Virus record (IMG/VR): IMGVR_UViG_3300048090_000069
Span: 25,652 to 89,651 of that record
Source: a virus
Lineage: Duplodnaviria; Heunggongvirae; Uroviricota; Caudoviricetes
Length of the DNA stretch: 64,000 nt
Direction: 5' to 3' (one strand)
Under the pieces are notes generated by a model that worked only from the letters and a program-made list of their open reading frames with translations, had not been told where the DNA came from and did not search any database. Positions within the stretch are counted from its first letter, which is position 1; the number at the start of each line of letters is the position of its first letter. The translations under genes were made by a program, and so were the position numbers. Below are positions 3,201 to 61,386 of this stretch, piece by piece.

Positions 3201-6200
3201 AAAGGAAAAGTTGCACAAGAAGAATTTACAGATGCAATTACTAAAGGTGCTCAAGCTGCATATATTGCTAGTGCTGCATACGAAACTGCTGCAAAGGCTT
3301 TGGTCAATATCACTAAGATTGGTCAACAGTCTGCGGAAGATGAAGAAAAAGCACAGGCAGATAGCTTGCTGATTTTCGCTGATACTGAGAAAAAGAAAGT
3401 AGAAATTAAAGCAAATTCTGCTAAGAGGATTATTGCCTCCAATTTAGCACAGGCTGAGTCTGCTGCTGGTACAGGGGACGAGAAGGCTATTGATGCTTAT
3501 GAGAAAGCAAAGATATCTTCTGTCAATGCTATTGCACAGATTGACAGGACAACCATTCTCAAAACTCACAACATCGAGTTAGAAGACTGGAAGAAAACAG
3601 CTAATCAAATTGTTGATGCAACTATCGAAGGTTTTGAACGTTCCCGCGATCAAGGATTAAGCATTTGGAAATCCTTAACTAACTCTATCAAAGACATGTT
3701 TAAAAAGACAATCTTTGATTATATTAAAAAAGAGTTTGCAAAACCTATCCTTCTTAATCTTGTTGCAAGTACAGCCGGTACGCTTGGTTTCTCAAGCTTG
3801 TCTGAAACGGCTGGTAAGATGGCTGGAAGTTCTTCTGGTTCAAGTGCAATTAGTTTGGCATCTGCTGCTAACAATATTTACAAAGCTATTAGCGGTGGTT
3901 TTGATGGGCTAGCCTCTTCAATTTCTAATGTAGCTCAGAGTGGACTAAACCTTCTTGGCCCTAACTCTGGCTTCTACACAGGAGAGGCAACTTCTGGTAT
4001 TGCAAATACTTCTCTTGCTAATGGTATTGGTACTGCTGGTAGTGCTGTAGCAGGGATTGCCGGTGGAATTTATGGTGGGCGTGCAATCTCTGGTGGTTAT
4101 TCTGCATTAGGTAGCTCTGGGAATAGTGCTGTAAACATTAGTACTATTGTTGGTGCTGTTGTTGGTGGGCCACTAGGGGCTTTAATTGGTGGATTGATTG
4201 GTGGTTCTGTTAATCGTTTGTTTGGACACAAAGCTAAAGAGATTCAGTCGCAAGGTATTCGCGGAACTTTAAGTGGTGATGCAGCAACTGGTGAAAACTA
4301 TGCTAATTGGATTCAAAAGGGTGGTTTGTTCAGGAGCGATAAAAAGGGAACAGAGACATCTGCTATTACTTCAGATATTCAAAATACATTAACCAGTAGC
4401 TTTAACCAACTGAAATCTACAGTAGGATATTTTGCTAAAGATGTTGGTGTTGGTACTTCTGCATTAGATGGCTTCACAAAACAATTTGATATTGCATTTG
4501 GAACTGATGCACAAAAGAATCAAGAAGCTGTAACAAAATTCTTCACAGATTTAGGTGATGAGTTTGTTACAAAGCTGATTCCTAACATATCTGACTTTGC
4601 AAGACAGGGTGAAACTGCTTCTCAAACTTTGGAAAGATTGTCCGCAACTTTCAAAATCACAAATCAAATTGTTGAGATTCTGGGTAAAACTGGAGAGCAA
4701 GCATTTGGTAGTGTAGGGCTGGCATCGGATAAAGCTCGTGAACGTCTGATTGATTTAGCTGGTGGTATTGATAAACTTGGCTCTAAAGTTACAGCTTATG
4801 CTTCTGATTTCTTAACGGATGCTGAGAAAATAGCTCCTGTGAAGAAAGCAGTTAATGAAGCATTGACATCTCTCGGATTAGCTGGTGTAACAACTAAAGA
4901 GCAATTCAAAAATATTGTCAACGGACTTGACCTTACTTCTGAAGCTGGTGCAAAACTGTTCAATGATTTACTAGACTTAGCTCCTGCATTTGCACAAGTG
5001 GCTGATGCTGCTGATTCTGCTGCACAGGCTGCTAAAGACGCTGCTGAAGCTGCTGAAGAGGCACAAAAAGCTGCTTTTGAAGCTGCCATGAAAGCTGTAG
5101 ATGCCTCTTTCAATAGACTGAAAAAATCTGTCGATGCACAGAAGTCTGTGGAGAATGACAGATACAATCAAGAAGTGGCATTTATTAAGGCGGTAGGAGA
5201 GGCACGTAAAAATGCTGCTCAAACTGAATTAGATACTGCTAAACAAACTGTCAGTACGTTGTCAGGTATTTTAAGTAGCTTGCAGAATGCTTTGGTTAGC
5301 ACAAAAGTTGAATCTGTGGCGCTAGATAAAGCTCGCCGTGTTTCTGCTCAAACTTATTTAGCATCTATTCGTGGAACAGACTTATCTAAAGCCTCTGGAT
5401 TAAATGATGCCCTTGGAAATGTTTCTGGGGACTCTAAACAGTTCTTCGCAACATTTGAAGAGTATGCTTTGGATCAAGCTAAGACAGCCAATTTAATTTC
5501 TGGCTTAGTTAATGAAACCACTATTAGCAAGAGTTTTGCAGAATTGACAGTTGAACGTTTGAATGATACAATTACAGCAATTCAAAATTCTACAGATGCT
5601 CAATTATCTGCTGCTGAAAGTCATCACAATGACGAAATAGCCAAGTTGGATAAGGTTATTGATGCGGCTCAATTACAAATTGATGCATTAAATGGAATTC
5701 AAACTGCTGTTCTTTCTGTTACATCTGCTATTGCTAATTTCAATGCTGCTGTTAATGCTGCGGTAGGTGCGGGAGGTAGTGTAGGTGGTAATCCTAGCCC
5801 TACTTATAGTGGAACAGGTAGTAGTGGTAGTATTCCTAGCAATGGCGGTGGTGGTCTTGGTAGTATGTACGTCAACCCTATTGGCTCTGGTACAGGTGGT
5901 TCTGAGTCTAATCCGTTCTTCTGGGAAAACACTGTCTGGGACTTCATGCGCAATGGAGCATACGTAGATGGTAGCCATGCATCCGGTTTAGGTTATGTTC
6001 CGTTCGACGGTTATATTGCAGAGCTTCACAAAGGCGAGCGAGTTATGACCGCTGCCGACAATGCAAACCTCTCTCGCCAAGCAGATAGTGCAAGTAGTGG
6101 TTCTTCTCAAGATATTAACTCTCTGAAAGCTTCCATTGAAGACTTGAAGCAAGCAATTGTTTCTGGAGATATTGCAGTAGTTGGATATCTGAGAGAGATG

Positions 6201-6326: not shown

Positions 6327-7460
6327 GTGGACAGTGCATTAGTCTCAAGTAACGTGAGTGCTACCAGTGCAACAGCGTGGAGTGCTAGCACAGTATATGT
6401 TCTTGGGGATATTGTACAGTATGACGCAACAAATAGCCATCGTACATTCCAATCTAAACTTGGAGTGACAAGTACAGTAACCATAACTATTGCCTCCCCG
6501 GCTGTTGTAACAATGACAGGACATGGACAAGTGGCAAACACACCTTGGCAAGCATCCACTACGGGTGCTCTGCCTACAGGTATTGTAGCAGGAACAGTAT
6601 ACTACATTCTTGCTCCTACAGCAAATACTTTCAACCTTTCTGCAACTCCTGGTGGTGCAGCGATCAATACAACTGGCACTCAATCTGGCACGCATACAGC
6701 TAAAGCTTCTTTGAATTATAACAAAAATCCTTCTACAGATGACGGGACAAATTGGATTAATACAGGAAGTACAAATCGTTGGAAGATGTTCGATCAAAGC
6801 GTTCAAAGTCAGACAACAAACTCTAATACAATTGATGCTGTAGTTACTTTTTCGTCTATTGTAGATACTGTTGCATTTCTTAATTTAAGTGCTCAATCGG
6901 TTAGAGTAAAGGTAACACATCCTGTAGATGGGATATTGTATGACCAAACACAAACACTAACATCCAGTTCTGGTATTACTGATTGGTACACTTATTTCTT
7001 TACCCCAATCAGACGGAAGACAGATATTGTATTTTATGATTTACCTAAATATTCCAATGTCCAAATTGAAGTGATTGTAAGTAATACAGGAGGTACAGCA
7101 GGTTGCGGCGGTTGTATATTTGGGCAAACTACCGACATTTCTAGTGAAGGGTTGGGCGTAGAGCATGGCGCTAAACTAGGTATTCAAGATTATTCGATTA
7201 AGAGCACTGATGACTTTGGTAATTTTAACATTGTCCAGAGAGCTTTTAACAGAAGAACAGATTTTAATATTTTCATCAATAACACAGATTTAGACTATGT
7301 TTACAATTTGTTGTCTGAAAGAAGGGCTATACCAACATTATATATTGGAAGTTCTAGATTCGGTTCAACACTTGTTTACGGATTCTATAAAGATTTTAGT
7401 ATTGATATTTCTTATTACGATTGTTCTGTAGTTTCAATTACATTAGAAGGACTCACATAA
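6327..7460 (+). CDS. tail/baseplate structural protein (Thr/Ser-rich), GTG start
   Basis: 377-aa ORF immediately downstream of the TMP. It is T/S/N-rich like distal tail proteins. No specific motif was recognised. Confidence 0.4.
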   Translation: MDSALVSSNVSATSATAWSASTVYVLGDIVQYDATNSHRTFQSKLGVTSTVTITIASPAVVTMTGHGQVANTPWQASTTGALPTGIVAGTVYYILAPTANTFNLSATPGGAAINTTGTQSGTHTAKASLNYNKNPSTDDGTNWINTGSTNRWKMFDQSVQSQTTNSNTIDAVVTFSSIVDTVAFLNLSAQSVRVKVTHPVDGILYDQTQTLTSSSGITDWYTYFFTPIRRKTDIVFYDLPKYSNVQIEVIVSNTGGTAGCGGCIFGQTTDISSEGLGVEHGAKLGIQDYSIKSTDDFGNFNIVQRAFNRRTDFNIFINNTDLDYVYNLLSERRAIPTLYIGSSRFGSTLVYGFYKDFSIDISYYDCSVVSITLEGLT

Positions 7461-7461
7461 T

Positions 7462-7896
7462 ATGGTTGCACAAGTAACTCCGCTACCAACTCCTCCAAAT
7501 AGGAGTATGGATAGCTCAACATTCACTTCTACAGCGGACAGTTTTCTAGGCGCGCTTCCTACATTTGGTACAGAAATTAACACAGTAGCATCTGAAGTGA
7601 GTGCTAATGCCGTGTCTGCTGATGTAGATGCGAACACAGCTACGGCACAGGCATTAATCGCGGCCAATGCTGCTGAAGCTGCTTTGTCCAGTGCAGGAGT
7701 GACCCTTTGGGTAAGCGGGAACACCTACGCGCAGGGTGTGACAGTGATTAGTCCTGCCAACTCTCTTGCATTTAGAAAGAAAACACCATCAAGCAGTTCT
7801 ACTACAGACCCATCCAATGATCCTGTGAATTGGCTCCCCATCGGGGGATCACCAGTTGGCACTCTTTACGCAAATAATAATTTCGGAGGTTTTTAA
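7462..7896 (+). CDS. tail fiber-like protein (N-terminal fiber-type domain)
   Basis: The N-terminus (PLPTPPNRSMDSSTF...FLGALPTFGTEINTVA...) resembles conserved tail-fiber N-termini, and the protein is Ala-rich. It is translationally coupled to the upstream gene. Confidence 0.45.
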   Translation: MVAQVTPLPTPPNRSMDSSTFTSTADSFLGALPTFGTEINTVASEVSANAVSADVDANTATAQALIAANAAEAALSSAGVTLWVSGNTYAQGVTVISPANSLAFRKKTPSSSSTTDPSNDPVNWLPIGGSPVGTLYANNNFGGF

Positions 7897-7899
7897 ACT

Positions 7900-8301
7900 A
7901 TGGCAGCAAATATTCAACCAATCTTTCCCGCATCCCCTGTGATCGGTATTGCTACCCTTACTTCGGCTACAGCAATTACTTCTCGTGCCAATATTACAGG
8001 TACAACAGGTTTGGTGCAGCTTACTCCTACATCAACAAACGGTAAACGAGTAGACAGCATTACAGTTAAATCTAAAGCCACATCTGTAGCCAGTATTACC
8101 AGTATTTGGATTTATAACGGCACTACTTCTTTCCTCTATGACGAGATTGACGTAACAGCAGTGACAGCAAGCACCACAGTAGATTCATTCTCTGTGAGAA
8201 AAACTTACAGTGATTTAATACTCCCCCCTACTTATCAACTTTACATCTCTCAGACAGTTCAAACAGATGTAAATGTGTATGCTAATGGTGGAGATTACTA
8301 A
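7900..8301 (+). CDS. tail protein
   Basis: 133-aa Thr/Ser-rich ORF packed within the tail gene block. Confidence 0.35.
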   Translation: MAANIQPIFPASPVIGIATLTSATAITSRANITGTTGLVQLTPTSTNGKRVDSITVKSKATSVASITSIWIYNGTTSFLYDEIDVTAVTASTTVDSFSVRKTYSDLILPPTYQLYISQTVQTDVNVYANGGDY

Positions 8302-13351: not shown

Positions 13352-14308
13352 TTAGTAAACCCATTCACCTTGTAGAGAATCTTTACTGTAAGCTGTAATG
13401 GTAGTCTCAAAGAAGTTACCAAGAATACCATCCCCTGTTATTTCCTCAACAAACGGAAGAGGATTTTTCTGAATGCCGAATTGTGCCTTGAAGCCCATTT
13501 GTTGCATACGGTAATCACACACAAGACGAATATAGTCTTTTAAATCTTGTTTGTCAAGCAGTTTTGGTTGATGTACAGAGTAACACAAATCAATGAAATC
13601 ATCTTCCAACTTCACAACCTCCCGTGCTGTTTCATAAATGTTGCGCTTAAGTTCTTCTGTAACAACTGAAGGATTCTCTTCAACAAAAATTTTAAACAGT
13701 TCAGACAAACCTTCTACATGATAAGATTCTTCAATAATGCTCCATTGATTGACACTCACCATCCCCGGAAGTTTATTCACACGAGAGTAGTCAAGCAGCA
13801 TAGCGAAGGATGCAAACAGATTAACACCTTCCATCAGAATTTGTTTGGCTAGGTATTCAGCCTTCCCTTTATTAGAGCGAAGGTCTGTAGCTTCAACCAT
13901 AAAATCATGCTTATCCTTCATCTCTTTATACTGTAAGAATTCAGACATAAATTCTTCACTGTCATACCCGAGAGTGTCATTCAGACGTTTGTATCCAAGC
14001 ATGTGTGTTGTTTCACGACAGGCAAACGACAGCAGCATAATCCTAGCGTCAGCGTTCTTGAATACAGGGAGAAGTTTCTCAACATATCCTGCACAAACAT
14101 CTGTATCAGCTTGTGTGAATAGGCGGAGAATCATCTTTGTGTAAGCCTTCTCTCCTTCTGAAATTGTGCCATCCTTCCACTGCACAACGTCTACAGACAT
14201 ATCAGCTTCTTCAGGATACCAGTGCGCACGTTCATGCTTGGCGTAAATCTCTTGCAGTTTATGATAACGTGGTACGAAGATTTCGGTAGTTTCTGTAATT
14301 TTACTCAT
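13352..14308 (-). CDS. nrdB: ribonucleotide reductase class I beta subunit
   Basis: 318 aa with di-iron/tyrosyl-radical motifs (E...H, RETTHM-like) typical of NrdB/R2. Confidence 0.85.
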   Translation of the reverse strand: MSKITETTEIFVPRYHKLQEIYAKHERAHWYPEEADMSVDVVQWKDGTISEGEKAYTKMILRLFTQADTDVCAGYVEKLLPVFKNADARIMLLSFACRETTHMLGYKRLNDTLGYDSEEFMSEFLQYKEMKDKHDFMVEATDLRSNKGKAEYLAKQILMEGVNLFASFAMLLDYSRVNKLPGMVSVNQWSIIEESYHVEGLSELFKIFVEENPSVVTEELKRNIYETAREVVKLEDDFIDLCYSVHQPKLLDKQDLKDYIRLVCDYRMQQMGFKAQFGIQKNPLPFVEEITGDGILGNFFETTITAYSKDSLQGEWVY

Positions 14309-14311
14309 TGT

Positions 14312-16180
14312 TTATCCTTGACACGAAACACAAACATCTTCACCAGACCAATCAACTAATGCACGACGTTCAATAGCTTTGGCATTATCGGACACGCCCT
14401 CTCGCTCCCCTCTATAATAATACATTGTCGTCACGTTCTCACTCTTCAGGAATTTCAAGTGGACAGAATTAACATATTGCCTACTGCTACCAAATGGGAA
14501 ATACACATTCAAACTTTGACTTTGGAATCCTGCACCAAGAGCACTTGCACGAGCATCAGCTTGTTCGATTACCCAATGCATATCTAATTCCATTGCTGTA
14601 GCAAACACTTTACGTTCATGCTCAGACAGGAAAGTCAAATCAGCAACACTACCATCTTTAGAGAGAATGTAATCCCACGTTGCATCATCATCTTGTCCGT
14701 AGCTCTGTAGCACCCTTTGTAGATGACGATTCTTTACACGGAAGTTACCAGCACGAGTAGACTTCAGGAACACATTACGGAAGTATGGCTCAATGCAAGG
14801 AGAAGTGTCTAGCAGGTCAGCACTGTTTGCATTTGGTGCAATAGCTGTTACACGGCTATTACGAAGTCCTGTACCTTTCATATCTTCTGGCTCACCACGT
14901 TCAATTGCTAGTTCTCTGCTAGAGGCTTCAGCGCGCTTTGCAATCATACCATAAATCTGATGTGTATGTTGAATAGCACTGTTGAATCCACCACCCTCAA
15001 ACGGAATACCTTTACTCTGCAAATAACCATGCCAACCTAGAGTGCCAAGCCCAATAGCACGCTCTCGTTCAGCAGAATATTTAGCTTTCCTGAGATTATC
15101 TGGTGCTGTGTCAATAAAGCTCTGAAGAACATTGTCCAAGAAACGAATCAAATCTTCAACAATCCTCGTATCTTTCCACTCTTCATATTTCTCAATATTC
15201 AAACTAGACAGGCAGCAGACGAAGGTACGTTCTTCATTTGTGGGCAGAGTAATTTCAGAACACAGATTACTACCTTTAATCTCTAATCCTAAATCCTTTT
15301 GGGATTGTGGCATCAGACGATTAGCCAAGTCAATCTTCATCAAATATGGCTCACCTGTCAGAGCACGAGTTTCAAGAATCTCTTCCCACACTTTACGTGC
15401 TGCCAGTGTCTCCCTAATTTCGCCAGTGTGAGGGCATTTCAAATCATACCATGTATCTTTCAAAACAGCTTCAATAAACTTGTCTGTCAGATTTACAGCA
15501 TTGTGAAACTGTTGCCGATTATCACTCCTACGCTTACTGTCACCACCGGGCTTACGGAAACGAATATGCTCAATAATATCTGGATGATCTACACGTTGAT
15601 AAGCAGCGATTGCACCTTTTCGTGTCTTACCTTGACGATAATATCCAATTGCACTGTCCATCACTTTCATATAAGGAATCGGGCCGGGGGCTTTACCCCC
15701 TACAGCACGAATACTCATATGAGCACCTGTACCACCTCCAGCAAGAGACAAATCAGCAAGCTCTTGCATCACTTCCACTTGACCTTTAGTTGTGTCTGGA
15801 ACATCAAAGGCGAAGCAAGAGATAGGTTGACCGTTATATTTCTCTGTAGGGAAGAATGTGTGTAGTTTGTTCCATTCAATACCTTTTGACCAATTCTTCC
15901 ATTCACCTTTTTGCGCATTACTGAGAACAGGACTAGCATACATGAACCATCCATTGTGTACATAATCATAAATACGTTGTGCTAGTTCATAGTCTCCGTA
16001 GCAATAAGCAACAGCAGGTCGTGCCAGTGCTTCAGAGATTGTTTCATCATCACGCTTGTAGAATCCGTCTAACAGTGTTCGGGAAAACTCAGTGATATAA
16101 GCAGGGTCTTCTTTATTAATTTCAATTTCAAGATACTTTTCTTTTGTCATTTCCACCCTTTGTTCATTTGAAGAAAGCAT
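14312..16180 (-). CDS. nrdA: ribonucleotide reductase class I alpha subunit (short form, no ATP-cone)
   Basis: 622 aa with conserved RNR large-subunit segments (GLGTLGWHG, SNLCSEI, NRHL). It sits directly upstream of nrdB. Confidence 0.85.
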   Translation of the reverse strand: MLSSNEQRVEMTKEKYLEIEINKEDPAYITEFSRTLLDGFYKRDDETISEALARPAVAYCYGDYELAQRIYDYVHNGWFMYASPVLSNAQKGEWKNWSKGIEWNKLHTFFPTEKYNGQPISCFAFDVPDTTKGQVEVMQELADLSLAGGGTGAHMSIRAVGGKAPGPIPYMKVMDSAIGYYRQGKTRKGAIAAYQRVDHPDIIEHIRFRKPGGDSKRRSDNRQQFHNAVNLTDKFIEAVLKDTWYDLKCPHTGEIRETLAARKVWEEILETRALTGEPYLMKIDLANRLMPQSQKDLGLEIKGSNLCSEITLPTNEERTFVCCLSSLNIEKYEEWKDTRIVEDLIRFLDNVLQSFIDTAPDNLRKAKYSAERERAIGLGTLGWHGYLQSKGIPFEGGGFNSAIQHTHQIYGMIAKRAEASSRELAIERGEPEDMKGTGLRNSRVTAIAPNANSADLLDTSPCIEPYFRNVFLKSTRAGNFRVKNRHLQRVLQSYGQDDDATWDYILSKDGSVADLTFLSEHERKVFATAMELDMHWVIEQADARASALGAGFQSQSLNVYFPFGSSRQYVNSVHLKFLKSENVTTMYYYRGEREGVSDNAKAIERRALVDWSGEDVCVSCQG

Positions 16181-34281: not shown

Positions 34282-34580
34282 TAATAATCCTCTCCAAATT
34301 TACTTTGTGTGGCTTCACAACCTTCTCCATATCCAGCTTCATAACCCTCTTCCCGGCCTTCACGGAATCCGTTGTAATGACCGTCATCAAAGCCATTGTC
34401 ATAACCCTCTTCACGAGCACTACTGATGTCTGCTGCAATATCACTCTGCCCATCATCATAACCTGCCTCATAGCCGATATTCCAAGCAGGATTGTTCTTG
34501 CCTTCTAACCACTCTTCAAAATCTCTCTCTGTCATCTCAGACAGCTTCTGTCGCAATGCTTGTGTCTCTGTTAGATTCAT
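34281..34580 (-). CDS. hypothetical acidic G/Y/E-repeat protein
   Basis: 99 aa with (E/D)GY(D/E) repeats. Confidence 0.4.
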   Translation of the reverse strand: MNLTETQALRQKLSEMTERDFEEWLEGKNNPAWNIGYEAGYDDGQSDIAADISSAREEGYDNGFDDGHYNGFREGREEGYEAGYGEGCEATQSKFGEDY

Positions 34581-38508: not shown

Positions 38509-38924
38509 GTTTCCTCCATGTAAAATTTATGTAAACCAATTGTGCGACGATGTTTAAACTTCTTATTCCACTCAGGATGTTTGTCCAACCTATGAAAATG
38601 AGAACATCCTCTACAGACAGGAGACATTCTAAACAACTCTTCCCATCCTGTCAAGCTCTTTGTTTCAATAATCTTCTGCCATGTGAAGCCAGAGAATTGC
38701 TTAGGCTGTAGAGCCACAACAGGGCAACTCTTGTTTGTACGTTTCATCCTCTCTAGAACTACGTCCATCACTGCACGCTTCCCTGCTAAGGACTCCCCTG
38801 AAGCCTCATGCTCTACGACAGCTTTCAAACAAACAGTGTCAGAGACAGCGAAGCTCCTAGAGGGATTGTCTACGTTGATACAAACAAAGAGTAGAAGAAG
38901 GCTCCAGAGCCATTTCAAGGCCAC
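38505..38924 (-). CDS. secreted SleB-like cell-wall hydrolase (Hydrolase_2 family)
   Basis: N-terminal signal peptide. The body carries EASGESLAGKRAVMDVVLERM...PKQFSGF, matching the SleB/CwlJ-type hydrolase motif. Confidence 0.5.
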   Translation of the reverse strand: MALKWLWSLLLLFVCINVDNPSRSFAVSDTVCLKAVVEHEASGESLAGKRAVMDVVLERMKRTNKSCPVVALQPKQFSGFTWQKIIETKSLTGWEELFRMSPVCRGCSHFHRLDKHPEWNKKFKHRRTIGLHKFYMEET

Positions 38925-40540
38925 AGGCGCTTACGAATCTTTTCTAGAGAGTCTTCTACAACCAGCTTACCATCTTCAAACACTGTTCGCAGTAATCCTT
39001 GTTTCTCTTCTTCAGGAGTTTGCTCATCGTACAGGACAAACCTCCCATCTTCATATTCTACACGGAGCAAACCTTTAGCAGATTTCTTCATGCCATCACC
39101 CGTTTTAGGGTCTTTGAAAATGTTACGTGGCTCTCCATTGACAATGCCGTAAGTGGCTTTCATAGCAAAGCCGTAGCTGTCACGAGTGACATGCTGATAG
39201 GTGTAGGAGCCAATGCCAAATACAATGTTAGAAGAGGCAAAGCCTTTAGCTTCCAGACGCTTCAGAATTTGCTGAGCACGTTCCAGAGTGATGCTGTCTC
39301 CGTAAATCAGACCAACACGAGGATTCAACATTTTGTGTCCTGTCTCGGACAGAGTACCACCAAAGATGTCCCAAAGGCATTCTACAGAGCCTTTTACTTC
39401 GTGCTCTGACACTTCCCGGCCTAGTTCAATGTCCATCAGACAATTACAAGAATCCCCACAGAAACTGTAATCAAATTCGTAATACTTGCCGTCTTTGACC
39501 GCTACATCAGTGGAATAGATATTGTCCTCGCAAACATCGTCAATATCTGTCACACGAAGTCCAGCAACAATTTTTACAGGATCACCACTATCAGGACGGA
39601 ACACCACCTTAGCATTACCCAGAGCATCAGGCTTACGTGCAAGGATGATGTCTTTCAGTTGTGCAGCAGTGTTTGTAATGACATTCCAGTAGTCCCAAGT
39701 GTCCGAAACAATACTAACAATACCGGACGGATATAGGTCAGTGATGAGACGCTTAATTGTAGCGTATTCACCTTCATCTGCCCCGCCCATGCACATTACA
39801 GAATGCTCCGTAGCTGGAACAGACCCACCAACAAACGTTTCACTGCCCTTGTAGTACTTTTCCAGATATTCAATGGCAGAAATAGTGTCAGTGCCAAGGA
39901 AAGACAGTAAGTGACCCGGAGCACTTTGAGCACCATCGAAGCTCCCAGACAAACCACGAAGCGAGAAATCATGACCTTGCCACAGAATAAACTCCTTAGG
40001 CGCACCTGTCTTTTCTGCATAATCCGTCAGCAGCTTACGATATTGGTAAGCAGTGGTTGCAGTGGTCGTAGGCTTCCACAGGTTGTTGCTGTACGCATCT
40101 TCCAGATAACCAACCAGCCAGCCAAAGCCGATCACCGTATTAGTGACAGTGAGTACAGGTACTTTAATATCTACCAAACTACCTTCAGGCAAAGCTTTGA
40201 TGCGCAGCGGCAGATAGCCCAAATCATGCAGGGCCGCAATGTGCGAGACATCAACAGCATCAGGGCCAAGGCACTTATCCATCATGGCTTTGTATTCACC
40301 TACAGCTTGTTCCTTTGGAACATTGAAGAATTGTTCATTGAACAAATCAATCAGGAAGTATTTGATAAAGCCTTGCAGGCCAAAGAATACAATCTTCTCG
40401 TCAAACGTATCTTTCAGCTTTGGTGCAAGCCGAGAGGAACGGGCAGTGAAATTAGAATAGACGTATTCCGTACCTTCTGGATACATCTTAACGTGTCCCG
40501 TCTTGTACATATCAGCAGCAAACAGCGGATTCAGTTTCAT
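38915..40540 (-). CDS. nadV: nicotinamide phosphoribosyltransferase family protein (Nampt/NadV homolog; could be the Namat-type nicotinamide ADP-ribose transferase)
   Basis: 541 aa with clear Nampt-family similarity along its length (MKLNPLFAADMYKTGH..., GTDT, C-terminal region). It is adjacent to a Prs-like gene. Confidence 0.85.
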   Translation of the reverse strand: MKLNPLFAADMYKTGHVKMYPEGTEYVYSNFTARSSRLAPKLKDTFDEKIVFFGLQGFIKYFLIDLFNEQFFNVPKEQAVGEYKAMMDKCLGPDAVDVSHIAALHDLGYLPLRIKALPEGSLVDIKVPVLTVTNTVIGFGWLVGYLEDAYSNNLWKPTTTATTAYQYRKLLTDYAEKTGAPKEFILWQGHDFSLRGLSGSFDGAQSAPGHLLSFLGTDTISAIEYLEKYYKGSETFVGGSVPATEHSVMCMGGADEGEYATIKRLITDLYPSGIVSIVSDTWDYWNVITNTAAQLKDIILARKPDALGNAKVVFRPDSGDPVKIVAGLRVTDIDDVCEDNIYSTDVAVKDGKYYEFDYSFCGDSCNCLMDIELGREVSEHEVKGSVECLWDIFGGTLSETGHKMLNPRVGLIYGDSITLERAQQILKRLEAKGFASSNIVFGIGSYTYQHVTRDSYGFAMKATYGIVNGEPRNIFKDPKTGDGMKKSAKGLLRVEYEDGRFVLYDEQTPEEEKQGLLRTVFEDGKLVVEDSLEKIRKRLWP

Positions 40541-59387: not shown

Positions 59388-59606
59388 ATGAAGACAATAA
59401 TCCACGTCAATCAACATATCATCAAGTCTAACAGGATTAATGGGGAGAATAATCCTACATTGACAGTGAAGACATACAAGAGTAACACGTATGCTCACGA
59501 AGTGGAGATTGATGGCCCATGTAAAATTATTTATAATTCTGAAAAACCATTAAGTTGTGGGGCAAGAGTTTGGATTGAGACAGAGGCAAACGTAATTTGT
59601 AAATGA
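59388..59606 (+). CDS. hypothetical protein
   Basis: 72-aa ORF. A 10-bp inverted repeat (GCAAACGTAA/TTACGTTTGC) follows. Confidence 0.4.
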   Translation: MKTIIHVNQHIIKSNRINGENNPTLTVKTYKSNTYAHEVEIDGPCKIIYNSEKPLSCGARVWIETEANVICK

Positions 59607-60107
59607 AAAACTATTTACGTTTGCAAATGAGAATTGGATTTTTGATTTCAAGAATTTTCCCCATTCCTGCCGAAAAATTCCCTTGCTTCTAAGGGAACCC
59701 CTCCACCCCTCTCCTGCCTAATAATGTGGCATTTCAGGAATGAACTAAAAGGTTTACTCCTGAAAGATTCATCTTTAAAAGATTCATCTTTATAAGATTC
59801 ATATGTGGACAGTTCCATTATGAATGATTCCATTTGAAGCTTTCCGATCCTGTCTCTCTAGCTGTCTATTTGTACAGCCTGTCTAGCTTGTCCTATTCTC
59901 CCCTTATTCCGAAGTGTTGCCTAGGTGTATTGTTAATACCCTGATAAGGTATGGACAATCCCCTTAGCATAGTTTTGTCTGTTTTCTTTATTTGTAAGCT
60001 TCTTTGTTTATTTATTTCTCTATGACATTCTTTGTCATACATAGCTGGCACGCTATTTGCGTTATCAAAATCTATGCCAAGGGGAGAAAGAGTTATCATT
60101 CTGTCAC

Positions 60108-60170
60108 TCATATACAAGAGTAGTCTTTGGTCTTATATAAGAGTAGTGGCAGGTCTTATACAAGACTTAA
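60108..60170. repeat. three direct repeats TATA(C/T)AAGAGTAGT / TCTTATACAAGACT (iteron-like)
   Basis: Visible tandem repeats within the 1.3-kb non-coding region. Confidence 0.5.
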
Positions 60171-60309
60171 CCCATTGATTCGTAATGATTTTATGCTTGC
60201 ATCGCTGTCGCTAATCCTGTGGATAACCATAAAATTTCATGTAAATTTACATGAGACATACAGAGGCATTTACATAAAACGTTCAAAAACACTCATTTTT
60301 CCTCTGAAG

Positions 60310-60368
60310 TTATCCACACAGGCATCCAATAGGAAGCGTTTTAAGGGGGATACAGGCGGTTATCCACA
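60310..60368 (+). promoter_or_regulatory. two perfect DnaA boxes (TTATCCACA) 50 bp apart, same orientation
   Basis: TTATCCACA at 60310-60318 and 60360-60368. This is the exact E. coli-type consensus 9-mer. Confidence 0.55.
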
Positions 60369-60747
60369 GCAGGGTATGGCACGGTATCAACCATACCTAA
60401 AAAATGGCTCTACGGCGTTTTACTGTATAAAAACACAGCGTTAATAAATCAGGCTGGCACGGATATTGCTACGCGTGCGGGCGCGCTGTCTTGTACAGGC
60501 AAGGCGCGAGGGACAAAGAGAGACACAATAAAAATAATTTGAAAATTTCTTGTGTAGGGTATTGCGCATAACAGTATTACAGGTTAATATTCGTCCTGTA
60601 GTAGATGTTTTGTAGTGCGGGGCAGAAGAAACCCCAAGGTTACGAGTAGAAGTAGAGTAGACATGGCGCTAATGTTGTTTGTTACCAGCCCTAAATCCTC
60701 CTTCTACCTAACTGAGCAAAAACCGCTTTGATCCTTTAGTAGCCCTG

Positions 60748-60873
60748 TCGGGATGACAGTACAAACAAGGGGAGCGCCAAACGTCTAAGATGCTAGACGG
60801 AAAAAACACTACTTGGGAAAACGTCTAATGTCGGGATGACATAAGCGCCCACTACACTAGCCATTCGGGATGA
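60748..60873. repeat. repeats TCGGGATGA (x3) and AACGTCTAA (x2)
   Basis: TCGGGATGA at 60748, 60831 and 60865. ACGTCTAA at 60781 and 60821. Confidence 0.45.
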
Positions 60874-60951
60874 ATCGCTAGCAGGGAATAAACCTAGGGA
60901 ACATTTGAACGTGAGTGTTCCCGAATTTATTAACCTGAAGGAGAAACAGAA

Positions 60952-61161
60952 ATGAAACTGTATGACAACAAAACCGGAAAAGAGTTTAAAGCTGGCGATA
61001 AGATTATTTGCTTCCGTGGCGAAGAGTATGTTATCACTTCCTTTCAACCTCCTAAACATTCTGGCTCTACAGGCCGGGTTTATGTAAAACCTGAAGGGGC
61101 AGACGGCGATAGATATTCGCAAGGATATTACCCTAGCGTATTTGACGCTGAATACAAATAA
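60952..61161 (+). CDS. hypothetical protein
   Basis: RBS GAAGGAGAAACAGAA. The upstream element CGAATTTATT...GGAGAAACA is repeated before the next small ORF (61220..61390). Confidence 0.4.
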   Translation: MKLYDNKTGKEFKAGDKIICFRGEEYVITSFQPPKHSGSTGRVYVKPEGADGDRYSQGYYPSVFDAEYK

Positions 61162-61386
61162 CATTTGAGAATTGGAACGTTAGTTCTCTCGAATTTATTT
61201 CACTGAAAGGAGAAACAAAATGAAACGTTTTGAAATTACACAAGGAACCGTCTTTATCGGCTCTTTGGTAGCTGAAAACGAACAAGCTGCAATTGTTCAG
61301 GCTAAAGACGATTTCGCTTACATCATTGAGGCATTGCACTTAGACGGCAATCCTCCTTTGGTTGCTACGGAAAAGGAGAAAACAAA

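Follow-up and report, generated by a model that had tools for sequence, protein, structure and literature searches.

Lytic phages are usually thought to begin their programme from simple strong promoters. More elaborate control is known from lambda nut sites and rrn leaders, where boxA together with a hairpin carrying a GNRA-type loop brings about processive antitermination, and origins that are activated or primed by transcription are known from lambda, T7, T4 and oriC-gidA. The iteron-plasmid and P1-type origins (P1 oriR, RK2 oriV) carry 22-23-bp iterons, and the E. coli datA/DARS loci, which modulate DnaA, hold several high-affinity DnaA boxes in a few hundred bp away from the chromosomal origin. 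Here we analysed a 1.3-kb non-coding interval, positions 59607-60951 of a 64,000-nucleotide stretch of an uncultured ~90-kb Caudoviricetes phage (IMG/VR record IMGVR_UViG_3300048090_000069, positions 25,652 to 89,651), which shares features with several of these systems. The whole stretch is called the window below, and positions are those of the window. Two further systems are close to it. Pseudomonas phage YuA is cited in PMC10914365 for its sigma-54 promoters, and in Betaproteobacteria the operator TCTTATGTCTTATATAAGACATAAGA has been assigned to SdhR, a GntR regulator of the HutC subfamily, whose regulon is a published prediction (Suvorova et al., PMC4494728).

We consider it about evenly probable that the interval is a host-state-gated control region for an operon of small early-type genes. 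The motifs, their conservation and fixed spacing, the covariation in the RNA and the recurrence of the module in other phages were all observed. A preliminary description had offered a replication origin or a regulatory hub; its motifs (repeats, boxes and a GCGCGC block at 60470-60510) were all found in place, and the hub was borne out by two sigma-54 cores, a sigma-70 promoter, two LexA-type boxes and operator-like palindromes, all of them conserved in relatives. The elements are listed below.

59862-59877, no strand: LexA-type box 1, CTGTCTATTTGTACAG, CTGT-N8-ACAG, identical in L001
60046-60060, plus strand: P1, predicted sigma-54 promoter, TGGCACGCTATTTGC, exact core, predicted start near 60072
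60108-60165, no strand: three palindromes with 23-bp phasing, TCATATACAAGA, TCTTATATAAGA and TCTTATACAAGA, equal to the operator core of SdhR/HutC-type GntR regulators
60218-60226, minus strand: DnaA box a, TTATCCACA, exact, conserved in L001, L029, L223 and L304
60237-60254, no strand: TCATGTAAATTTACATGA, a perfect palindrome of 18 nt located between boxes a and b, where the GC content is 27%
60310-60318, plus strand: DnaA box b, TTATCCACA, exact, with GTTATCCACA invariant in all five aligned relatives
60336-60349, no strand: conserved block GCGTTTTAAGGGGG, nearly invariant, between boxes b and c
60360-60368, plus strand: DnaA box c, TTATCCACA, exact, about 95 bp upstream of P2
60423-60438, no strand: LexA-type box 2, CTGTATAAAAACACAG, CTGT-N8-ACAG, starting 32 nt upstream of the -24 element of P2
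60455-60469, plus strand: P2, predicted sigma-54 promoter, TGGCACGGATATTGC, exact core, predicted start near 60481
60470-60510, plus strand: GC-rich P2 start region beginning TACGCGTGCGGGCGCGC, which by composition and folding can form a 5' hairpin
60520-60590, plus strand: AT-rich UP-like tract (28% GC upstream) and P3, predicted sigma-70 promoter, predicted start near 60597
60597-60951, plus strand: predicted structured leader RNA of the downstream operon, 355 nt, minimum free energy -101.5 kcal/mol, z = -2.5
60724-60734, plus strand: CGCTTTGATCC, possible divergent boxA at the boxA position of the relatives, in the window, L001 and L290
60745-60759, plus strand: leader hairpin 1, ctgtc-GGGAU-gacag, from folding and relatives
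60828-60842, plus strand: leader hairpin 2, atgtc-GGGAU-gacat, from folding and relatives
60857-60881, plus strand: leader hairpin 3, a CUAGC/GCUAG outer stem around auuc-GGGAU-gaau, with 100% of cells paired
60897-60931, plus strand: terminator-like hairpin (60897-60922) followed by CGAATTTATT, with 5 of 10 pairs covarying, about 10-20 nt before the ribosome-binding site

Pattern scans of viral contigs gave seven related loci, L001, L029 (on the same contig as L238), L223, L154, L304, L271 and L290. L001 was about 95% identical to the window, and the clustering of elements in the interval, which far exceeds what chance would give, was conserved in the relatives at about 72% nucleotide identity. 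Their common order is an upstream DnaA-box cluster, P1, three to five iterons, DnaA box a and the AT-rich palindrome, followed by DnaA box b, the block GCGTTTTAAGGGG, DnaA box c, the LexA box, P2 with TTGCTACGCGTGCG, P3 and the leader; after the leader come a hairpin, then CGAATTTAT, then the first gene. The related loci lie on contigs of about 61-92 kb or on fragments, and since their position is mid-contig, the region is not a genome end in this 90-kb family. A loose viral pattern of a DnaA box, a gap and TGGCACG matched mostly by chance. The pattern scan of metagenomes returned only a contig already recovered (L238, the same as L029), its remaining matches being unrelated, and the non-coding DNA was unmatched among GenBank phages in near and distant search modes with the window region, L223 and L308 as queries.

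The interval is flanked on both sides by co-directional plus-strand blocks of small genes and, as had been claimed, it contains no credible open reading frame (ORF). The longest one (105 amino acids, TTG start, 60127-60444) had no match in the PHROG search, and its frame was disrupted by 1-nt and further non-triplet gaps in the alignment with relatives; it was therefore ruled out as a real gene.

Sigma-54 promoters were called by GG at -24, GC at -12 and exact spacing (TGGCAC-N5-TTGC). By this criterion the 64-kb window has two exact cores (0.13 expected), both rightward and both within the interval, with P1 located 409 bp upstream of P2. P1 is conserved in L029/L238, L223, L290 and L304 and lost in L001, L154 and L271, while P2 is present in L001, L029, L223, L154, L304 and L271 (as a TGGCAT variant in L271). 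The spacers of both are variable, so that the sigma-54 elements are kept in relatives while the spacer drifts. The GC-rich palindromic block of the preliminary description is present and is, more specifically, the P2 start region; within it TTGCTACGCGTGCG is invariant in relatives, and in most of them the GC-rich start is followed by a U-rich tract. A sigma-70 promoter overlapping LexA box 2 was rejected, since no conserved -35/-10 pair was found there.

LexA-type boxes, called by the CTGT-N8-ACAG form found in beta- and gamma-proteobacteria, numbered five in the window, against 1.0 expected, and two of these are in the interval; further CTGT-N8-ACAG boxes lie at 24393-24408 and 34529-34544. 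In box 2 of L001 the spacer is rewritten (CTGTATTTTCATACAG; ATTTTCAT for ATAAAAAC) with the CTGT and ACAG arms intact. Where a box is present, its start falls 30-37 nt before the -24 element, as in L223, L029, L300, L308, L318 and L174.

Two exact DnaA boxes in the same orientation, 50 bp apart, had been reported previously, and they correspond to boxes b and c; the count was incomplete, as the inverted box at 60218-60226 had been missed. The three exact boxes lie inside 150 bp, there are no others in the 64-kb window (0.74 expected window-wide), and a one-mismatch scan of the interval revealed no additional ones. Relatives carry 4-5 further DnaA boxes, some in 11-bp phase, and the upstream cluster has been lost in the window phage. 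A third half-site of the 18-nt palindrome, ATTTACAT, lies at 60268-60275, and CATGTAAA and GATTTACA of this AT-rich palindrome are invariant in the 5-sequence alignment. TyrR box, NrdR box, CRP, Pho box and PilR sites were considered for the palindromes and rejected, because the spacing or sequence did not fit or the sites were not conserved.

The same arrangement recurs outside this family. In unrelated phages, among them L215/L302, L300/L308/L318, L296 and L268, the parts stand in matching order: iterons come first, then DnaA boxes, a palindrome, the sequence gcgtt(t)tagg and a LexA box, and last a sigma-54 promoter that has TACGCG and a GC run. An analogous palindrome, TTTCACAATGTGAAA, is found in such phages, and a block similar to GCGTTTTAAGGGGG, gcgttttagggg, in unrelated phages that bear the module. 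The extended promoter TGGCACG-N4-TTGCTACGCG was present in at least 120 viral contigs, compared with a rough chance estimate of about 5-10 contigs for its 17 fixed bases. DnaA boxes were then counted over 600 nt on each side of 105 distinct viral promoters of the P2 subtype among the matches listed, and 57 boxes were found upstream and 2 downstream, with about 1.8 expected per side. The upstream boxes peak 100-250 nt from these promoters, and 14 of the 105 have at least two of them. Such one-sided, distance-restricted placement of DnaA and LexA sites favours action in cis over the collection of decoy sites.

Several observations concern sigma-54 promoters in other phages. In several unrelated phages (L215, L123, L308, L180 and L197) the TACGCG promoter drives three successive genes, for a HELxH/zinc-ribbon-like protein of about 194-215 amino acids, a MoxR/CobS-like AAA+ ATPase and a VWA (CobT-like) protein. 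Separately, L210 (8.3 kb), L134 and L122 carry 7-11 sigma-54-type motifs within a few kb, some as tandem or divergent pairs, and a large part of the programme of these phages may depend on sigma-54.

The repeats that had been taken as iterons do recur at 23-bp phasing, and their palindromes match a host GntR operator instead of an initiator site. The palindromic core TCTTATAYAAGA occurs at 60108, 60131 and 60154, which are its sole matches with up to 2 mismatches in the window, and the direct repeats TATAYAAGAGTAGT at 60111-60124 and 60134-60147 belong to the 23-bp units. The middle copy is exact to TCTTATATAAGA, the others have 1-2 mismatches, and the flank consensus G...C is at 69%. Relatives have 3-5 operator copies each. 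TCTTATATAAGA is the centre of the betaproteobacterial SdhR operator (PMC4494728), with which the phage sites share an identical 12-14-bp core, (G)TCTTATATAAGA(C), and traces of the outer half-sites. Hosts have a single site between mdh and gntR-sdhC, whereas the phages have tandem arrays of 2-6 and no regulator gene. A scan with one genome per species found the 24-nt operator form in at least 120 genomes, nearly all Burkholderiales or Rhodocyclales; among the matches listed, the remainder were a few Vibrio, Alteromonadaceae, Pantoea and others. In Bordetella holmesii and Paraburkholderia sartisoli the operator has mdh on one side and, on the other, a GntR/UTRA gene with sdhC after it, and a regulator homologue was present within 600 nt at 83 of 120 host loci among the matches listed.

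On the viral side, 77 contigs of 23%-61% GC carry at least two sites at 23-bp phasing, with 2-6 copies each. The window shares no protein with the iteron-bearing L215, and a search of the window and of viral and metagenome loci L001-L328 gave no SdhR homologue encoded by a phage. Given this diversity in GC content, the absence of a shared protein and of a phage-encoded homologue, a host factor is the most economical binder, and by sequence match the operators are probably bound by a host GntR regulator. The genes most often beside the arrays are of terminase and portal types, from one podovirus clade; the terminase adjoins only in that clade and not in the ~90-kb family, which excluded the iterons as a terminase pac site. 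Podovirus-like contigs about 36-41 kb long have the iteron array or the TACGCG-type sigma-54 promoter at both ends, for example in L275 (53-87) and L324 (6666-6700), the two ends of IMGVR_UViG_3300046168_000002, and also in L195/L234; because of this double presence the element there would be part of a terminal repeat or of an overlap in the assembly. A break at such an array is also seen in many short contigs.

P3 consists of a -35 element TTGCGC (60562-60567), a 17-nt spacer and a -10 element TAATAT (60585-60590); the hexamers and the 17-nt spacing are conserved in 8 relatives with a varying spacer sequence. The repeats TCGGGATGA at 60748, 60831 and 60865 are the loop and 3' arm of the three leader hairpins, which have 4-5 bp stems, and two AACGTCTAA repeats are located at 60780 and 60820. 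Relatives have 2-4 such hairpins each, with loops GGGA, GGGAU or GUGAU and with stems that are all different, and within the window the GGGAU hairpins are confined to the leader. In hairpin 3, changes on both sides were seen in 4 of 9 pairs. For the 3' module of the leader (six sequences) 93.8% of cells were paired and 9 of 19 pairs had changed on both sides; this level of pairing was reached by 0 of 500 shuffles, and slid controls gave 23-43%. The suggestion of a structured non-coding RNA is partly borne out by the last 355 nt, with their covarying hairpins; this RNA runs into the first gene. Rfam searches at the gathering score and at permissive E-values gave no family, the best E-value being 0.098, far below the gathering score.

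The leader contains a boxB-like hairpin with a GNRA-type loop, and the canonical boxA GCTCTTTAACAA is present at 10-12 of 12 positions in the leader of five relatives (L304, L223, L154, L238 and L271). We liken the leader to an antitermination device because of the GNRA-type-loop hairpins and the boxA of the relatives, and by analogy this combination suggests processive antitermination. As in lambdoid early regions and the rrn leader, the leader comes after a sigma-70 promoter and has short hairpins of this loop type, with terminator-like hairpins further downstream. Unlike those systems, there are three hairpins instead of one, no N-like protein was found and the boxA of the window is divergent; in contrast to lambdoid phages, the operators match the site of a host regulator and not that of a phage repressor, and sigma-54 promoters are added. 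The element of hairpin plus CGAATTTATT occurs a second time before the next gene (61166-61199), with no further exact copy in the 64-kb window, and its stems covary in relatives; it could serve in weak termination, in processing or in translation. A CsrA/RsmA sponge was considered for the GGGAU hairpins and rejected, because the homologous loop in L238, GUGAU, is GNRA-type and lacks GGA.

Two side observations were made on leaders. CCTCCTTC at 60688-60695 is complementary to GAAGGAG (60938-60944), the first gene's ribosome-binding site about 245 nt downstream, and the two could form an anti-Shine-Dalgarno pairing. In the 51-kb phage L256 (reverse complement, about 7400-8300) a long non-coding stretch follows a sigma-70 promoter and a GC hairpin, and it holds at least three boxA-like copies (ctctttaacaat) with a few hundred nt between each.

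From these elements we infer as follows which proteins bind, whether each of them activates or represses, where transcription starts and what the leader does. Host sigma-70 RNA polymerase would fire P3 and give basal early transcription, producing the 355-nt leader, whose three GNRA-type-loop hairpins would act on the transcript or the polymerase. The leader would most likely be a nut-/rrn-like antitermination device or a translation-control device, placed ahead of the terminator-like hairpins before the first genes. P1 and P2 would add conditional sigma-54 transcription in the direction of P3. LexA would hold P2 off from a position about 16 nt before the -24 element of that promoter, and an enhancer-like region with the three DnaA boxes would serve P2. 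P1 would transcribe into the three HutC/GntR (SdhR type) operators of a metabolic repressor, which would block it. In this way the phage may sense DNA damage in the host, its replication-initiation potential and its carbon or tricarboxylic acid (TCA) cycle state.

Several findings weigh against this proposal. No enhancer-binding protein of GAFTGA type, and hence no candidate activator of P1 and P2, was detected by GAFTGA or Walker-A motif search in the window and loci L001-L236; the conserved upstream palindromes and DnaA boxes are at enhancer distance from the promoters, and none matched a known activator site. We know of no case in which DnaA acts as a sigma-54 activator. In L290 and L256 the place of P2 is taken by a promoter of sigma-70 type, and the GC-rich start is retained. 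The P1-operator sub-module is dispensable even in the 95%-identical L001, since 3971-4777 of L001 takes the place of window 59955-60215 and carries exactly there a 186-amino-acid ORF (4088-4648) with its own TTGACA-type promoter; this ORF had no Pfam family and the insert looks like a mobile or homing-type element. The leader of the window has no canonical boxA (GCTCTTTAACAA or CGCTCTTA), and no N-like protein was identified, the neighbouring small proteins being without an annotated family in the PHROG search.

A transcription-activated replication origin is a possible alternative, to which we give clearly less credence. Here DnaA and an iteron-binding host protein would open the AT-rich stretch between the boxes, sigma-54 transcription away from the boxes would activate or prime the origin and the phage primase-helicase would then load; the region could at the same time be a promoter hub. 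Three consensus high-affinity DnaA boxes in a cluster, the 4-5 extra, partly 11-bp-phased boxes of relatives and a segment of about 60 bp with 27% GC between boxes a and b point in this direction, as do the DnaA boxes that always stand behind a promoter firing away from them and the P2 start of most relatives, whose hairpin and U-rich tract would yield a short RNA. The likeness to P1 oriR and RK2 oriV extends to 23-bp repeats with the phasing of iteron plasmids beside consensus DnaA boxes, an AT-rich stretch and a GC-rich block, and in L215 and L302 three boxes in inverted orientation flank four iterons on each side. In contrast to those origins, the palindromic core of the iterons is identical to the operator of a host transcription factor, no linked initiator (Rep) gene was found across the phage types and the arrays are spread over phages that share no protein. 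Fewer than two DnaA boxes lie within 500 bp of 58 of the 78 iteron arrays, and the window phage has lost its upstream box cluster. The check proposed previously, cumulative GC skew, showed no turning point or extremum at 60 kb, the curve climbing steadily over 43-64 kb, which is weak evidence because phage skew largely follows transcription. No 13-mer or DnaA-trio pattern was seen on reading the interval sequence. With T7 and T4 transcription-primed origins the region shares a T7-type replisome and promoters followed by GC-rich and then AT-rich DNA, whereas DnaA boxes are absent from those origins, whose promoters are of phage or middle-mode type; the T7-type polymerase and primase-helicase of the phage count against a DnaA-dependent origin, since to our knowledge DnaA is not used in known T7-type replication systems.

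The remaining readings are weaker. It is unlikely that uncultured phages have a portable enhancer-like cassette in which DnaA, 100-250 bp upstream, drives or licenses sigma-54 promoters of the TTGCTACGCG-GC-run type under a veto of LexA and a HutC-type repressor; in it DnaA could replace or assist an enhancer-binding protein, or couple promoter firing to origin opening. If so, early transcription or replication priming would read the replication-initiation, DNA-damage and carbon state of the host directly. A decoy cassette, in which the sites soak up DnaA, LexA and the GntR repressor as phage DNA multiplies, so that host re-initiation is blocked, SOS genes are turned on and TCA-cycle genes de-repressed, seems improbable. 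It would account for sites of three host regulators side by side, for phage arrays of 2-6 against one operator per locus in hosts and for the many arrays without a nearby sigma-54 promoter, but a pure sponge would need neither the fixed LexA-promoter offset nor one-sided, distance-restricted DnaA boxes, and just three sites of each kind are present per genome. datA/DARS have in common with this region the density and location of their boxes, and differ in spacing and orientation; they have nothing comparable to the association with a sigma-54 promoter. Least probable of all is a free-standing regulatory RNA, for example a protein sponge, in place of a leader. Its conserved covarying hairpins with a constant loop, the terminator-like hairpin at 60897-60922 and the z-score of -2.5 would suit such an RNA; the lack of an Rfam family, the poor U-tract of the terminator, the ribosome-binding site of the first gene about 20 nt further on and the occurrence of hairpin plus CGAATTTATT also before the next gene argue against it, and a sponge of the CsrA-type GGA kind is made unlikely by the one homologous GUGAU loop.

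Other features in and around the interval are as follows.

59586-59624, plus strand: inverted repeat with 15-nt arms (87% complementary) and a 9-nt loop, spanning the stop codon of the upstream 72-amino-acid gene (ORF end 59606), likely the end of the upstream transcription unit
59746-59802, no strand: three to four 15-nt tandem repeats AAAGATTCATCTTTA, 25-27% GC, kept in L001
59965-60040, plus strand: T-rich, AT-rich tract (23-33% GC by composition) directly upstream of P1, a possible bend or IHF-type region
60952-61161, plus strand: first operon gene, 69 amino acids, without an annotated family in the PHROG search

The tandem repeats AAAGATTCATCTTTA are not recognisable in relatives more distant than L001. 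The window phage encodes a family-A DNA polymerase, a Toprim/KaiC-type primase-helicase, a 1999-amino-acid tape-measure protein and both ribonucleotide reductase subunits (13352-16180); a tRNA-Met gene is located at 21620-21696 and an NAMPT/NAPRTase-type enzyme at 38915-40540. Its closest GenBank relative is Pseudomonas phage vB_PsaM_M1, with a polymerase identity of just 43%.

Each component of the region is of a known kind, and the combination does not seem to be described in Rfam, GenBank phages or the literature searched. The same holds, within that scope, for phage arrays of a host GntR operator, for a LexA-gated sigma-54 promoter with a fixed LexA register and for DnaA boxes at enhancer distance from a dedicated sigma-54 subtype. 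In that literature, phage sigma-54 promoters were found only for YuA, which is likewise a virulent phage using host sigma-54 promoters; unlike what is cited for YuA, DnaA boxes and a LexA box stand upstream of the particular subtype seen here, in which a GC run comes after TTGCTACGCG. For Felix O1 an indirect rpoN and IHF dependence is described, for which its authors invoke glutamine and RpoS.

Since the phage carries an SdhR-type operator, its host may be sought among proteobacteria with an SdhR-type regulator, an E. coli-type LexA box and sigma-54. In conclusion, a virulent-type phage and many unrelated uncultured phages carry the sites of three host regulators together with sigma-54 promoters in a fixed arrangement, which suggests that infection decisions are wired to the replication status, the SOS state and the central metabolism of the host.

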